A DNA stretch of 64,000 nt, taken from NCBI GenBank assembly GCA_963668645.2, contig CAXXWC010000018.1:512001-576000 (forward strand), written 5' to 3'. This document shows, one piece after another, positions 38,722 through 41,796 of the stretch. The notes beneath the pieces are model-generated. The model searched no databases and was not told the origin of the DNA. It was given only the letters and a program-made list of their open reading frames with translations. The position numbers and the translations under genes are program-made. This stretch comes from Desulfobacterales bacterium. GTDB taxonomy: Bacteria; Desulfobacterota; Desulfobacteria; Desulfobacterales; UBA2174. Positions within the stretch are counted from its first letter, which is position 1. Every line of letters begins with the position of its first letter.

Positions 38722-38940
38722 AACCGCGCGGTAAGGTGCAAAGTTATGCGCAATTGGGAGAGGTGGTTCGGGTGAAGCGGCATATTTTTAGCGGATTAAA
38801 AAGGAAAATGACGGTCCATTAATGCTATTCTCTCTGTTTGGAAGAACAGATTTTCAAAAATACAATAAAATGTCAACAGTTCTCCATACAGAAACGGATT
38901 TCTGTTAAAAAATGCAAAAAGAATAATGACGAGGTATTTT

Positions 38941-39927
38941 TCATTCTATTTTGGGTCGGTTCCTGTTTTGAAAGCGCAGATTCAGCACTCCGGTGTTGAT
39001 AAGCTCTTTTACATAAACGACCGTTGGCAGTGTCTCGAGTGCTTGGCGGACCCTTTCCTGAGAGGGATGGATGTAGGGTTCGGTGCTGCGGGTTGAAGAA
39101 TGCCCGAGGATGCTCTGGATGATCAACACGTCGACCTGCTTGTCGTTGAGATGGGAAGCCAGGCTGTGGCGCAGGGTGTGGCAGGAGACGTTAAACGGCA
39201 GGTTCAGCCCTGAGTGGGTCATGATTTTTTTCAGATTGTCCTCCATGGTGCGGATAGCCAGGCGGTTTCCTTTTTTGGATACGAACAGGGCCGGAGTCAT
39301 CCAGTAGTTGAGGAACAATTGCCGGACGGCCAGGTAATGGCAGAGCGTTTCGACCAGCTCATCGTTGAGATGAAGGGATCTGGGCTTGCGGCCTTTACCC
39401 ATGACGTTGATCTTGCGGGATTCGAGGTCGATGGCGTTCAGATCCAGGCTGTGAACCTCACCTACCCGGAGCCCGAGCTGATACATGAGGGCGTAAACAG
39501 CGTATTCACGGATTCCCAGGACGGTTTTCGTGTCGATTGCGGCAAACAGGGTGTTTATCTGGTCATGGGTCAGGGCCTGGGGGCGACTGCGGTAGCCGGA
39601 ACGGATTTTCAGGACATCGTAGAAAGGCAGATCCTTTGCGCCCGGCGGGTCGCACAGCTTGAGAAAATTGCCGTAGCTTCTCAAGGAGAATATCTTGCGG
39701 TTGACAGAAGCGCCGCAGTTGCGCCGTTGCTTTTTCAGATAATACTGAAAGTCGATGACAGCCGGTCCGTCGATGGCGTCGTAACCGCCTGTATCGATGA
39801 AGTCCTTGAACAGATCCAGGTCGACGCGGTTGGTTTGCAGGGTCTGCTCGCTGAGGTCGTAGATCTGCCGGCGATAGTGGAAGAAGCGGTCGACGTGGCC
39901 GAAAAAGACGCCGGGTGTAACGCTCAT
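38941..39927 (-). CDS. Tyrosine recombinase (third gene of RIT)
   Basis: GLRVGE, HTLRHS, LGHS, Y in TEPYIH. Confidence 0.92.
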   Translation of the reverse strand: MSVTPGVFFGHVDRFFHYRRQIYDLSEQTLQTNRVDLDLFKDFIDTGGYDAIDGPAVIDFQYYLKKQRRNCGASVNRKIFSLRSYGNFLKLCDPPGAKDLPFYDVLKIRSGYRSRPQALTHDQINTLFAAIDTKTVLGIREYAVYALMYQLGLRVGEVHSLDLNAIDLESRKINVMGKGRKPRSLHLNDELVETLCHYLAVRQLFLNYWMTPALFVSKKGNRLAIRTMEDNLKKIMTHSGLNLPFNVSCHTLRHSLASHLNDKQVDVLIIQSILGHSSTRSTEPYIHPSQERVRQALETLPTVVYVKELINTGVLNLRFQNRNRPKIE

Positions 39928-40826
39928 TGGCACCTTCCTTGGATGGAGACGCCGTCCAGGGCGTTTTGGATCATGTGATCGCAGACATGAACGTAGATGG
40001 CCGTATCGCAGATGGTGTCATGGCCCATCATGGCCTGGATGGCCCACAGGGGGATGTTTTTGCGGTACATTTCGGTGGCAAAGCCGTGGCGCAGCATCCT
40101 GGGGGTGATGGGCGGATCGCACCCGGCCTTGCGGGACTGGTCCTTTACCATGCGCTGAAAACGGTTGTTGGAAAGAGCGGTGTAGTATTGGGCCGGGAAC
40201 ATGGGAGCATAGGGCCTGTGGGGGGAGTCGGGATGGTCCAGGTATTCCACCATGGTGTCAAACAGCCGGCCGACGACAAACAACGCCCGCTGCTTTTTGT
40301 TTTTACCCCGGATGCGCAGCAGCCCGGTGCGTGCTGCGTGTCCGGTTTCAAAATCGCGCGCGCAAAGGCCTGTCACCTCGAAGGTTCGCAGCCCCAGCGC
40401 CCACAGTAGCGAGACCATGGTGAAGTCTCTGAGGCAACGCCAGGTAGACCGGTCGAAGGAATCGAGCAGCCGGAAGGCCTGGTCCGTGGAAGCCGGATTT
40501 GTTCTTTGCCGCTGTCGCCGGATGATCAGCGGCAGGGCCTCGGCGGGGTTGGTATTGATGAACCCGGCCCTTCTAACGAAGGCAAAAAAGCTTTTGAGGG
40601 CGTAGTGGTTGCTTTCGATGCGGCTGGGCCCCAGGCCTGACTTTTTCAAATGCGTGAGCCATTGCAGCAGGTGTTCGGGTTCAGCCTCAAGGGGATCGAT
40701 GTGCAGACGGTGCTTTGCGTAACCCCAGAAAGCCTTGGCGCCCAGGGCATAGGTTTCGATGGTGGATGGGGCAAAGACGTTGATTTTTTCAAGCTCACTT
40801 CGGTATCGTTGGATTAACTGCGGCAT
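39924..40826 (-). CDS. Tyrosine recombinase (second gene of RIT)
   Basis: GLRTFE, RMLRHGFAT, MGHD, TAIYVH; AGGAGG RBS before the ATG at 40826. Confidence 0.9.
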   Translation of the reverse strand: MPQLIQRYRSELEKINVFAPSTIETYALGAKAFWGYAKHRLHIDPLEAEPEHLLQWLTHLKKSGLGPSRIESNHYALKSFFAFVRRAGFINTNPAEALPLIIRRQRQRTNPASTDQAFRLLDSFDRSTWRCLRDFTMVSLLWALGLRTFEVTGLCARDFETGHAARTGLLRIRGKNKKQRALFVVGRLFDTMVEYLDHPDSPHRPYAPMFPAQYYTALSNNRFQRMVKDQSRKAGCDPPITPRMLRHGFATEMYRKNIPLWAIQAMMGHDTICDTAIYVHVCDHMIQNALDGVSIQGRCQ

Positions 40827-41692
40827 GGTACCTCCTGGTTGTAGGGATGTTGGTTCATAAAGGCGGCGAAGCGGTCGGGGTTGAGGTGGGTGTATTTGAA
40901 GGTGTTTTTTCTCAGGCTGTGGCCGAGGACTTCTTGGGTGATTTCGATGCCGGCGGCGCGGTTGAGATGAGTGGCTGCGGTGTGGCGGAACAATCTGGGG
41001 TGAAGGGCGTTTTCTATGTCCACAGTGTCTGCGGCCTTGCGGAAGATCTCCTGGATGGTGCGCGGGCAGATGCGCTTTGCGCGCTTGGAGGTCAGCAGGG
41101 GACCGGCTCCCATGGTCTGGATATAGGCGCTGAGGACCACACACAAGGATTTGGGCAGCGCGAGAGAGCGGCAGCGCCGTCCCTTTTCGGTGACCCATAA
41201 CAGCCCGGAACCAATATCGACATCGTGGACATCGATCATGCACAGGGTCGAGGTTCTCAGCCCCAAGGTGGCCAGCAGCAAGAAGATGACCAGGTTTCTC
41301 AGACCGAAAGGACCGTCAGCTTGATCACTGAAATAGCGCACGAGGCGATCCACCTGCTCCTGGGTCAGGAAGGCCGGCACAGTCTTTTCGATCTTCGGAT
41401 AGGGGAGCTTGGCGGCGATGTTTTCGGGGACGTGGCCATGCAGGCTCAGGAAATGGTAAAATTGCCGCAGGGTCCAGACACGGGATTTTTTCACATGGAC
41501 GGAAGGACTCTTGAATTCGCCAACGAAATCGGACAGATCCAAATAGGCGATGTCCGTAACGAGTTCAACACTGCGAATTTTCAGGAAAACACGGAATTCG
41601 TGCAATCGGATGGCCAGTGCCTGCTGGGAGCGCCGGGAGAAATTTGCAAGCCGGCAGTAGTCCAGGAACGAGGTGGTGTGACTCTGAAGCAT
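40814..41692 (-). CDS. Tyrosine recombinase (first gene of RIT)
   Basis: GLRTST, RLFRHTAAT, LGHS, TFKYTH. Confidence 0.9.
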   Translation of the reverse strand: MLQSHTTSFLDYCRLANFSRRSQQALAIRLHEFRVFLKIRSVELVTDIAYLDLSDFVGEFKSPSVHVKKSRVWTLRQFYHFLSLHGHVPENIAAKLPYPKIEKTVPAFLTQEQVDRLVRYFSDQADGPFGLRNLVIFLLLATLGLRTSTLCMIDVHDVDIGSGLLWVTEKGRRCRSLALPKSLCVVLSAYIQTMGAGPLLTSKRAKRICPRTIQEIFRKAADTVDIENALHPRLFRHTAATHLNRAAGIEITQEVLGHSLRKNTFKYTHLNPDRFAAFMNQHPYNQEVPCRS

Positions 41693-41796
41693 GACGCCTT
41701 TTCCATATCATGGGATCACGCTTCACCGTCAAACCCTTGATTTTCAACCCTTCCCCGCCCTCACCGCGGGGTTTGTTGGTTAGGCTGAGATAATTT

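Follow-up and report, generated by a model that had tools for sequence, protein, structure and literature searches.

A probable recombinase-in-trio-type element inserted between G and TT of an integron attC core

An element of 3058 bp carrying three tyrosine-recombinase genes sits between the G and the TT of the R' core (GTTRRRY) of an integron attC site, in one orientation and with no target duplication, and its insertion parts R' from the remaining attC hairpin. The element lies in a 64,000-nucleotide stretch of DNA, the whole of which is called the window here. We regard it as a transposon of the recombinase-in-trio (RIT) type, with three overlapping genes between 14-bp repeats, that belongs to a clade specialised in integron attC, and we place the probability of this reading at about 0.72. 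The attC-inserting relatives, which come by the dozen, suggest a previously undescribed kind of integron parasite.

An attC site is an imperfect hairpin, about 57-141 nt long, whose base carries the R'' (RYYYAAC) and R' (GTTRRRY) motifs, and the crossover point of the integron integrase IntI in attC is the G|TT of R'. RIT elements have reportedly been described by Van Houdt in 2009 and 2012 and by Ricker in 2013. In the literature that was searched, outside of which Ricker 2013 falls, no description of an attC-targeting recombinase trio was found, and the available portions of two integron papers cite only the IS1111 group on the targeting of attC. The clade would add a third kind of attC-targeting mobile element beside the IS1111-attC elements and the group IIC-attC introns, and it would be the first to enter at the IntI crossover itself. 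Such an element should inactivate attC, fuse cassettes and perhaps spread with them. The clade also gives a defined target, an insertion point, 14-bp arms with a 6-bp spacer and a natural 667-bp non-autonomous derivative, which together are all that is needed for a transposition assay. The diversity of its target sequences raises the question of how an Xer-like recombinase trio recognises attC.

The element and its attC target

The element, the site that it interrupts and the neighbouring attC sites have these positions in the window:

38722..41779, minus strand (the strand of its genes): RIT-like recombinase-trio element of 3058 bp, ends from copy comparison
38668..38721, plus strand: 5' part of the interrupted attC, with R'' GCCCAAC at 38668-38674, the L''/L' stem and the R' G at 38721
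41780..41785, plus strand: remainder of the interrupted R' core, TTAGGC, with which the next cassette begins, read from the sequence and from right flanks with TTA in 64/69
42939..42996, plus strand: uninterrupted attC of the next cassette, GCCCAAC...GTTGGGC, 58 nt, -14.8 kcal/mol, z -3.45
43566..44305, no strand assigned: second interrupted attC with a 667-bp element derivative; R'' at 43566, G at 43632, TTAAAT at 44300-44305

Three further copies of the element in this genome, together with attC sites of the same types that lack an insertion, confirm the ends at 38722 and 41779, which a sequence-only reading of this DNA had proposed. That genome holds two full copies, one deletion copy and two fragments of the element. 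The second full copy, on contig C19, is 96% identical to the window copy; the deletion copy is a 667-bp internal-deletion derivative at 43633-44299, inside the window, with both ends intact; and contig C14 carries a right-end fragment whose flank after the right end is GCA, not TTA. Compared with the C19 copy, the 667-bp copy and the C14 fragment, similarity to the window copy ends at 38720/38722 on the left and at 41779-41782 on the right. The sole positional ambiguity is the G at 38721, which equals the G at 41779, in agreement with the earlier statement that there is no duplication beyond a possible single G. GC content over the coding part of the element is 0.53-0.61, as compared with 0.35-0.49 in the flanks, and the left flank of the window copy, searched as a genome repeat, matches only itself. 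Contigs of public runs contain an internal-deletion form that joins 39000 to 41398, a second that joins 39000 to 41451 with 57 other letters between, and one from another organism that joins 38999 to 41421. The copies diverge by 4-14%, and ritB of the C19 copy has a TAG stop; both observations weigh against claiming recent activity.

The insertion point can be read by comparing filled and uninterrupted sites. An intact attC at C19:379418-379477 and the sequence left of the element in metagenomic locus L069 agree at nearly every base, starting within R'' and ending at the same G; past this shared G, the intact attC reads TTAGCG and L069 reads AACC of the element. An intact attC on contig C21 reads ...TTATTTGCAACG|TTATGA, and the homologous attC of this type is interrupted at that G both in the C19 copy and in locus L102, two elements with different hexamers and 57% RitB identity (the hexamer is defined throughout as the 6 nt following the right arm). 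Homologues of the window attC in contigs of runs X12 and X1 and in genome G053 run from 38721 or 38715 into a TT or GTTATGC core. Precise removal of the element would leave ...GGCG|TTAGGC, an intact R' core, and uninterrupted attC sites of the same type read so; the proposal that excision would restore attC is sound in this respect. Neither a circle junction (41779 to 38722) nor an empty-site junction (38721 to 41780) was found in the contigs of four public runs, a result that says nothing either way, because contigs drop rare forms.

The same target recurs in a clade survey of 80 metagenome loci, 8 loci from 6 other genomes and the 4 copies in this genome. The relatives were obtained by a genome search and an alignment-based metagenome scan; a scan of the genome contigs with a single RitB protein returned no relative. 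The consensus target is ...CG|TTA[G/T], with left flanks that end in CG in 54/57 cases and right flanks that start with TTA in 64/69, whereas the strict TTRRRY follows the element in just 17/63. The rebuilt window site, GCCCAAC...G|TTAGGC, is 60 nt long, has a folding energy of -14.0 kcal/mol and passes a strict attC fold test. Eight of 34 rebuilt sites pass this test, compared with 0/660 shuffles and with 41/3461 natural CG|TTA sites of the genome, several of the 41 being attC themselves; insertion sites thus pass about 20 times as often as other CG|TTA sites. The z score is below -2 in 18/34 rebuilt sites. The other 16/34 are not separable from shuffles by the fold test, which means that the test is weak or that some targets are not attC; 3 sites have no AAC partner. 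A further attC-like hairpin lies on the same strand, 0.6-1.6 kb off, in 4/17 long loci. Although the genome contains 3462 CGTTA sites, all three copies with both ends (3/3) are in attC-type sites. The conserved target sequence is too short for such a restriction to attC, so a feature beyond sequence, most likely the hairpin, is probably recognised. A strict R''/R' pairing scan was also tried as an attC finder; it recovered 1 attC in the window and 149 matches genome-wide, mostly spurious and in GC-rich coding sequence, and its list was discarded.

Each same-strand open reading frame of the window is followed by an attC, and the window has three attC sites. Two intact intI genes are present in the genome. 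A broken intI is found 5 kb upstream of the C19 copy, and two attC sites occupy the interval. No intI was found on the window's contig, C18, so the window is an attC cluster without an integrase. The cassettes that the window copy should fuse look like phage-defence genes.

Recombinase genes and element ends

The genes and end features of the element are listed below:

38941..39927, minus strand: ritC, 328 aa; R154, K178, H250-x-x-R253, H276, Y285; Phage_integrase E 9e-37
39924..40826, minus strand: ritB, 300 aa; R147, K175, R243-x-x-R246, H269, Y278; Phage_integrase E 2.8e-21
40814..41692, minus strand: ritA, 292 aa; R146, K170, R233-x-x-R236, H258, Y267; Phage_integrase E 7e-27
41675..41735, no strand assigned: imperfect hairpin over the ritA start codon (pair I6, 20 nt, 80%; z -2.4)
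38722..38735, no strand assigned: left terminal inverted repeat, AACCGCGCGGTAAG; clade consensus AACCCCGCaGTaAG
41760..41773, no strand assigned: right terminal inverted repeat, CTCACCGCGGGGTT; clade consensus CTAACTGCGGGGTT
41774..41779, no strand assigned: hexamer TGTTGG, borne by the element and the spacer if the ends are joined; the same in 4/4 right ends of the genome, at 4 different sites

The three genes are adjacent, on the same strand and overlapping, as is characteristic of RIT elements, and all three products match Pfam Phage_integrase. ritA and ritB overlap by 13 nt, and the ritB stop and ritC start share 4 nt (ATGA). The first catalytic arginine (Arg-I), the beta-hairpin Lys, His-II and Tyr are kept in RitA, RitB and RitC, which gives each protein the catalytic set. 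The motifs pointed out in the sequence-only reading are present, namely RLFRH at 233-237 of RitA, RMLRH at 243-247 of RitB and HTLRH at 250-254 of RitC. In the clade, the first position of H-x-x-R is Arg in 76/83 RitA and 68/78 RitB proteins and His in 16/16 RitC proteins, counts that rest on typing by a crude motif regex, with about 4 RitC proteins misfiled as RitB. As judged from the sequences, Arg for His in RitA and RitB is a family trait, with no sign of a special division of labour visible. RitC has 43 residues after the Tyr, as compared with 22-25 in RitA and RitB. Matches of the Rit proteins to integron-integrase models are partial and sub-threshold, at 58-75 bits against a cut-off of 265. 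A hairpin equivalent to that over the ritA start codon occurs at the same place in three relatives (L101 and L102, both at 5256-5318, and L051, at 5266-5343). A scan for an outward promoter at the right end gave 3 promoter-like sites against 2.5 expected, with none from the right end toward the downstream cassette, and a terminator-like hairpin from the right arm was not significant (z -1.0).

The left end, AACCGCGCGGTAAGG, begins at 38722; the right arm, CCTCACCGCGGGGTT, occupies 41759-41773 and is followed by TGTTGG at 41774-41779. When the two ends are joined, inverted arms flank the asymmetric 6-bp TGTTGG, just as had been described. The repeat itself had been given as 15 bp. The 13/15 match between the reverse complement of the right arm and the left end stands, with mismatches at positions 5 and 12, but the repeat conserved in the clade is 14 bp. 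When the left and right ends of relatives are compared in 45 pairs, 11 arm positions among the first 14 agree in at least 43 of them; agreement falls to 32 pairs at position 5 and 30 at position 9, and is never seen at position 12. Position 15 matches in just 3/45 pairs, and the conserved repeat is therefore 14 bp long; the window copy has 12/14 arm matches plus an unconserved fifteenth match. Within a single sequence, the terminal pair is unremarkable, because 118 inverted pairs with a length of 12 nt or more occur in 3.5 kb and the 25 longest do not include it. The terminal repeat is significant because it sits exactly at the independently mapped termini and is conserved in relatives, where the arms are kept at only about 65% nucleotide identity.

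The 6-bp length of the spacer is based on the position of the TTA of the right flank, which starts 6 bp past the right arm in 64/69 right ends. TGTTGG is found in 38/70 right ends, and the remaining variants fit T-R-N-K-G-G; position 1 is T in 70/70, and positions 5-6 are GG in 69/70.

Exchange at the target and alternative explanations

The moving form of the element would have its ends joined as arm-hexamer-arm, and the Rit proteins would recombine this joined-end site with attC. TGTTGG had been interpreted as the conventional crossover (overlap) region of such a site. This interpretation was not borne out, as the hexamer is absent from the target and is found at the right junction only, with 0/57 at the left. 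A conventional core site of the lambda or Xer type, in which TGTTGG is the overlap, strands are exchanged 6 bp apart and the target has a matching overlap, is accordingly rated as unlikely. It would fit the arm-6 bp-arm layout, the conserved arms, the constant spacer length and the conserved first (T 70/70) and last two (GG 69/70) spacer positions. However, the target offers no hexamer that matches: in 54/57 cases the last two of the 6 bp to the left of the element are CG, and in the window, the C19 copy, the mini copy and G026 these 6 bp match TGTTGG at the final G only. Non-homologous overlaps resolved at random would place about half of the hexamers on the left, as opposed to the 0/57 observed. 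Because it is not shared with the target, the hexamer is unlikely to be a homology-dependent crossover region, and the junctions bear no 6-bp staggered homologous exchange. One G is common to target and element and the hexamer is always on the right, so the exchange behaves as if at a single position. Exchange at one position would be unlike exchange across a homologous 6-8 bp overlap. Such a crossover, without overlap or duplication, would be consistent with a mechanism in which element and target meet in folded single-stranded form, exchange is limited to one strand at G|TT and the product is completed by replication, as for IntI/attC or for strand-biased circularising elements. We put this mechanism forward tentatively. 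It would also fit the fixed orientation relative to the attC strand, targets that are diverse besides CG|TTA and yet often form hairpins, and the arms of the element, which in single-stranded form would pair with each other and leave the hexamer as the loop. A mobilome study reports RIT DNA that is exonuclease-protected with no circle junction, and proposes hairpin intermediates (PMC5737581). Against it, the hairpin test fails or is weak at about half of the sites, and the Rit proteins score 58-75 bits, compared with the integron-integrase cut-off of 265.

It is very unlikely that the integron integrase captures or moves the element like a gene cassette while the trio has another role. The insertion is exactly at the G|TT of IntI, a complete GTTAGGC core is kept at the right junction and the genome has two intact intI genes, all as would be expected if IntI were responsible. 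A cassette, however, starts with TT and ends in its own attC, whereas the element starts with AACC and neither of its ends holds an attC-like site. Its termini are inverted repeats, its internal-deletion derivative keeps both ends, and these ends recur in 80 metagenome loci and 6 other genomes. Least probable of all is an immobile relic, with fixed, possibly domesticated recombinases and with shared flanks that stem from duplicated attC-plus-element segments. The divergence of 4-14% between copies, the ritB stop in the C19 copy and the lack of excision products in the contigs of four runs (contigs that drop rare forms) would accord with a relic. Duplicated segments are contradicted by copy similarity that stops at the element ends, by surrounding attC types and neighbour genes that differ, and by one attC type that is occupied by two element lineages with different hexamers; uninterrupted attC paralogues identify the element as the insertion.

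For a recombinase-in-trio-type transposon specialised in attC, several consequences can be proposed. The interrupted attC should be dead for IntI, and the two flanking cassettes plus the element would become a single larger unit until the element is excised precisely and ...CG|TTA... is back in place. A reversible lock on the excision of cassettes, as suggested in the sequence-only reading, would be a reasonable consequence of parting R' from attC. It is possible, though doubtful, that a widespread, mostly sediment clade reads the folded attC hairpin, exchanges a single strand at the phosphodiester used by IntI and rides between integrons in a composite cassette moved by IntI. If true, the clade would be a third class of attC parasite with a mechanism of its own, and its tyrosine recombinases would be the only ones from outside integrons known to process attC.

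Comparison with known systems

The element resembles RIT elements in its three adjacent, same-strand, overlapping recombinase genes with full catalytic sets, its length of about 3 kb, its terminal inverted repeats and its several copies per genome (PMC3414803, PMC8138268). RitA is nearest to the canonical first gene, and RitC has a longer C-terminal tail. In BLASTP comparisons with two canonical plasmid trios, RitA matches gene 1 best (76 and 73 bits); RitC matches gene 3 best in one trio (79 bits), close to gene 1 (75); and RitB gives 61-68 bits with genes 1 and 3 and a weak 28 with gene 2. The trio is thus a distant relation of the canonical RIT proteins, with only 22-30% identity to these two trios; its middle protein does not pair with canonical RitB, and RitA is 292 aa as compared with 400-404 aa and aligns only from canonical residue 122-137. 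RitA of RIT elements has two sequential core-binding domains, and RitC has an extra C-terminal helix (PMC8138268); the restricted alignment indicates that the second N-terminal domain appears to be missing here. The ends of the two canonical trios showed no clear inverted repeats and no shared end motif. A published table gives the target specificity of RIT elements as untested (PMC10214605, Table 1), whereas a target is defined for this clade; the same source states that RIT transposition had never been achieved under laboratory conditions (PMC10214605).

Tn554, the strand-biased circularising elements (SE) and GInt likewise encode several tyrosine recombinases, cause no duplication of the target and have a 6-bp junction unit (PMC10214605). 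In these elements, 6 bp of the donor's left flank are copied to the right of the new site (PMC10214605). A footprint of the Tn554/SE type was ruled out here, since left flanks end in CG in 54/57 cases as opposed to hexamers in GG in 69/70, and the hexamer is constant at four genome sites. Unlike Tn554, SE and GInt, the present element has no fourth conserved gene.

With IntI, the element shares tyrosine-recombinase chemistry at the G|TT of attC and minimal sequence identity between partners. It differs from IntI and its cassettes in Rit proteins that fall below the integron-integrase cut-off and in having no cassette boundaries. Identity as a gene cassette was ruled out on its ends, which start with AACC, finish with TGTTGG and have no attC-like site on either side.

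Group IIC-attC introns are monophyletic and attC-specialised; their insertions lie in the bottom strand, antisense with respect to the cassettes, and can alter the expression of downstream cassettes (PMC3001079). The present clade is similarly a lineage specialised for attC, but those introns retrohome by a ribozyme and reverse transcriptase, and the element has no RNA or reverse-transcriptase component. The IS1111-attC elements ISPa21, ISPst6 and ISKpn4 also insert in attC with site and orientation specificity (PMC3001079, PMC11187229). These elements lie antisense to the cassettes and have circular intermediates (PMC3001079, PMC11187229). They combine a DEDD transposase with a seekRNA and sit near the 5' end of attC, whereas the element described here carries tyrosine recombinases and sits at the R' crossover.

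Element, recombinase genes and copies

The RIT-like element (38722-41779 in the window) carries three tyrosine recombinase genes between terminal inverted arms and ends on the right in the hexamer TGTTGG (41774-41779).

Recombinase genes of the element
41692-40814, reverse strand: ritA, 292 aa, Pfam Phage_integrase E 7e-27
40826-39924, reverse strand: ritB, 300 aa, Pfam Phage_integrase E 2.8e-21
39927-38941, reverse strand: ritC, 328 aa, Pfam Phage_integrase E 9e-37

ritA and ritB overlap by 13 nt, and an ATGA is common to the ritB stop and the ritC start. The GC content of the coding part is 0.53-0.61, versus 0.35-0.49 in the flanks. 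All three proteins are Xer-like in NCBIfam, yet fall under all curated cut-offs. Arg-I, the hairpin Lys, the x-x-R Arg, His-II, and Tyr are kept in RitA, RitB, and RitC. Reading of the proteins bears out the substitution of R for H reported in the H-x-x-R motif of two recombinases (RitA, RLFRH; RitB, RMLRH), with RitC canonical (HTLRH). The ritA start codon lies within an imperfect hairpin (41670-41740; z -2.4) that has equivalents at the same place in relatives and whose arm motif, GTGAAGCG, recurs ~50 bp inside the left end (38774-38785). This hairpin could be a subterminal binding site or translational control element.

The element ends were mapped by aligning copies from the same genome. 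A second full copy on contig C19 has 96% identity to the window element; its ritB (C19:381599-382498) contains an in-frame TAG. A 667-bp copy within the window (43633-44299) consists of the left 281 bp and right 397 bp with both ends intact. Contig C14 carries a right-end fragment (75454-75918), and C21 an internal one. The copies agree from CG|AACC on the left through ...GGGGTTTGTTGG on the right and then diverge. This alignment upholds the boundaries originally proposed, the sole ambiguity being one G. In the window copy, 13 of 15 positions agree between the left arm and the reverse-complemented right arm. Within one sequence the terminal repeat is unremarkable, being outside the 25 longest of 118 inverted pairs of >=12 nt in 3.5 kb; it is meaningful because it lies at independently mapped termini and is conserved in the clade.

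Contigs from public sequencing runs contain two more internal-deletion forms with a common left breakpoint at 39000 and a similar form, with left breakpoint 38999, in a different organism. The deletion forms suggest a family of non-autonomous mini-elements. The C14 right end runs into GCACCATTGAGTG... rather than TTA; a second, slightly different copy of this junction occurs in contigs of run X9, and the end seems to lie inside a different repeated unit.

Insertion in attC sites

The left flank of the window element reads GCCCAAC-AATGC-CAATTAACGCGG...CCGGTTATTG-GCGGC-G, and the right flank begins TTAGGC. With the element taken out, these flanks make up an imperfect hairpin whose cores are R'' GCCCAAC and R' G|TTAGGC, which puts the insertion precisely at the IntI strand-exchange point, G|TT. 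The C19 copy occupies the same point of a different attC (...TTATTTGCAGCG, element, TTAGGC), and the 667-bp copy that of a third (flanks 43566-43632 and 44300-44305; ...GTTCAAACG, element, TTAAAT). Empty counterparts also exist. At C19:379418-379477, an uninterrupted attC is nearly identical, from within R'' through the G, to the left flank of the metagenomic relative L069; beyond the G, the C19 site reads TTAGCG and L069 reads element. An intact attC on C21, ...TTATTTGCAACG|TTATGA, has homologues in C19 and the metagenome locus L102 that are interrupted at that G by different elements (hexamers TGTTGG versus TATGGG; RitB identity only 57%). The window attC type is uninterrupted in contigs of run X12 (another organism), in X1 (sediment metagenome), and in another genome, G053. 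On contig C106 of G053 (locus L022, 1554-1720), an attC homologous to that of the window runs from its G straight into long, perfect, GC-rich palindromes (TTCCCGGCGAC...GTCGCCGGGAA plus a larger one), which might be a further element occupying that crossover point.

Few genomes carry a RitB relative (7 of 401 sampled from the order, own genome counted, E <= 1e-40; 3 of 401 in a phylum sample, E <= 1e-50). Such relatives are common in sediment and marine metagenomes, where 229 of 583 candidate stretches were confirmed. The best 80 of these 229 loci (53-74% identity) were pooled with 8 loci from 6 other genomes and the 4 own-genome copies, yielding 57 left ends, 70 right ends, and 45 pairs. The left flank ends in CG in 54/57 cases, the right flank begins with TTA in 64/69, and the element has one orientation with respect to CG|TTA throughout. 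In consensus, the ends read CG|AACCCCGCaGTaAG... and ...CTAACTGCGGGGTT-hexamer|TTA, with a 14-bp repeat mismatched throughout at position 12. The hexamer is TGTTGG at 38 of the 70 right ends, TAGGGG at 8, TGTGGG, TATGGG, and TGAGGG at 5 each, TAAGGG at 4, and others at 5. Strict TTRRRY follows the element in only 17/63 cases and TTA[G/T] in 58/63.

Empty sites were rebuilt by script for 34 of the 45 pairs (11 had flanks too short) and subjected to a home-made test requiring a single hairpin closed by AAC/GTT. On strict criteria, eight of the 34 pass, compared with 0 of 660 shuffled flanks; among natural CG|TTA sites of the own genome, 41 of 3461 pass, several being attC sites themselves, adjoining intI fragments. 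By energy alone, 18/34 have z < -2, 3/34 are without an AAC partner, and the remainder are indistinct. A further attC-like hairpin lies on the same strand 0.6-1.6 kb away in 4 of 17 long loci. The targets of the window element, of the C19 copy, and of several relatives are firmly identified as attC, and roughly half of the metagenomic targets are putative attC sites.

An intact 58-nt attC follows at 42939-42996, 3' of the next ORF. Besides two intact integron integrases, the genome contains several fragments, including a broken intI (C19:374719-375377), in two pieces, 5 kb upstream of the C19 copy, with two attC sites between this intI and the copy. No intI is found on the window's own contig (C18), making its array an attC cluster without an integrase. 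Integron platforms or remnants lie at C3:17-23 kb, C13:122-136 kb, C15:88-90 kb, C22:84-90 kb, and C21:162 kb. At least 12 attC sites with CG|TTA are unoccupied in this genome, so free targets for the element exist. At 34690-34727, a short hairpin followed by ATAATTGTTGGGC (R'-like GTTGGGC) lies where GC falls from ~0.55 to 0.40; it may be a first, degenerate attC or the cassette-cluster boundary. The upstream cassette (34796-38595) holds two genes, one for a calcineurin-like phosphoesterase that weakly resembles an anti-phage phosphoesterase model, below its threshold, and one for a 772-aa HSP90/MutL-type ATPase; the two may form a defence pair within a single cassette. Downstream, the ORFs at 44389-46698, 46718-49309, and 49394-50287 include a seemingly split SIR2-APAZ-PIWI (short Argonaute) gene: one matches positions 4-709 of a PADLOC pAgo model and another positions 736-1030 of the same model, and an 863-aa ORF without known family lies between them.

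Probable mode of strand exchange and predicted consequences for the cassette array

Insertion at attC G|TT is site- and orientation-specific and without duplication; the arms are conserved, and the hexamer is element-borne. The sequence-only reading had proposed that the joined ends form a recombinase core site with the hexamer as spacer. Its account of the element, ends, joined-end arms, and motifs is confirmed, and its interpretation holds for boundaries and arms. Homology-dependent exchange across the hexamer, however, conflicts with the junction anatomy: the corresponding 6 bp of the target end in CG, not GG; at four sites read through, target and hexamer have only the final G in common; and the hexamer is at the left junction in 0 of 57 cases. 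The exchange thus behaves as a single-position crossover, as does the one-strand exchange of IntI. A footprint of the Tn554/SE type is ruled out by the constancy of the hexamer at four different own-genome sites. The Rit proteins would act on a joined-end form (arm-hexamer-arm), recombining it with attC. Because target sequence of the CG|TTA type, plus little more, occurs 3462 times in the genome, yet attC-type sites hold all three complete copies, something beyond that sequence is probably read; the attC hairpin is the obvious candidate for this extra feature.

Insertion splits R' from R''/L''/L', so IntI should be unable to use the interrupted attC. Between the neighbouring attC sites, the phosphoesterase/ATPase cassette, the element, and the cassette that follows would then act as a single unit. 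Excision at the exact boundaries would give back ...GGCG|TTAGGC. The putative reversible lock suggested earlier would follow in logic from this blocking of IntI and restoration of the site; just as plausibly, the element could travel as a passenger within composite cassettes.

Relation to known elements

The architecture is the same as that of RIT elements (PMC3414803, PMC8138268, PMC10214605). Two canonical plasmid RIT trios share the layout with identities of only 22-30%, for which reason we use the name RIT-like. RitA pairs with gene 1 of these trios and RitC with gene 3 or gene 1, whereas RitB does not pair with gene 2; RitA is without ~120 N-terminal residues of its canonical counterpart. 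No paper combining attC with RIT elements was found in the literature searched (Ricker 2013, outside it, may mention attC), and recent integron papers, in the portions available, cite only the IS1111 group for attC targeting. The main result, a transposon clade with recombinase trios that targets attC at the point where IntI crosses over, appears to be new. The known attC-targeting elements are the IS1111-attC group and group IIC-attC introns, whose insertions lie close to the opposite end of attC and whose enzymes are unrelated.
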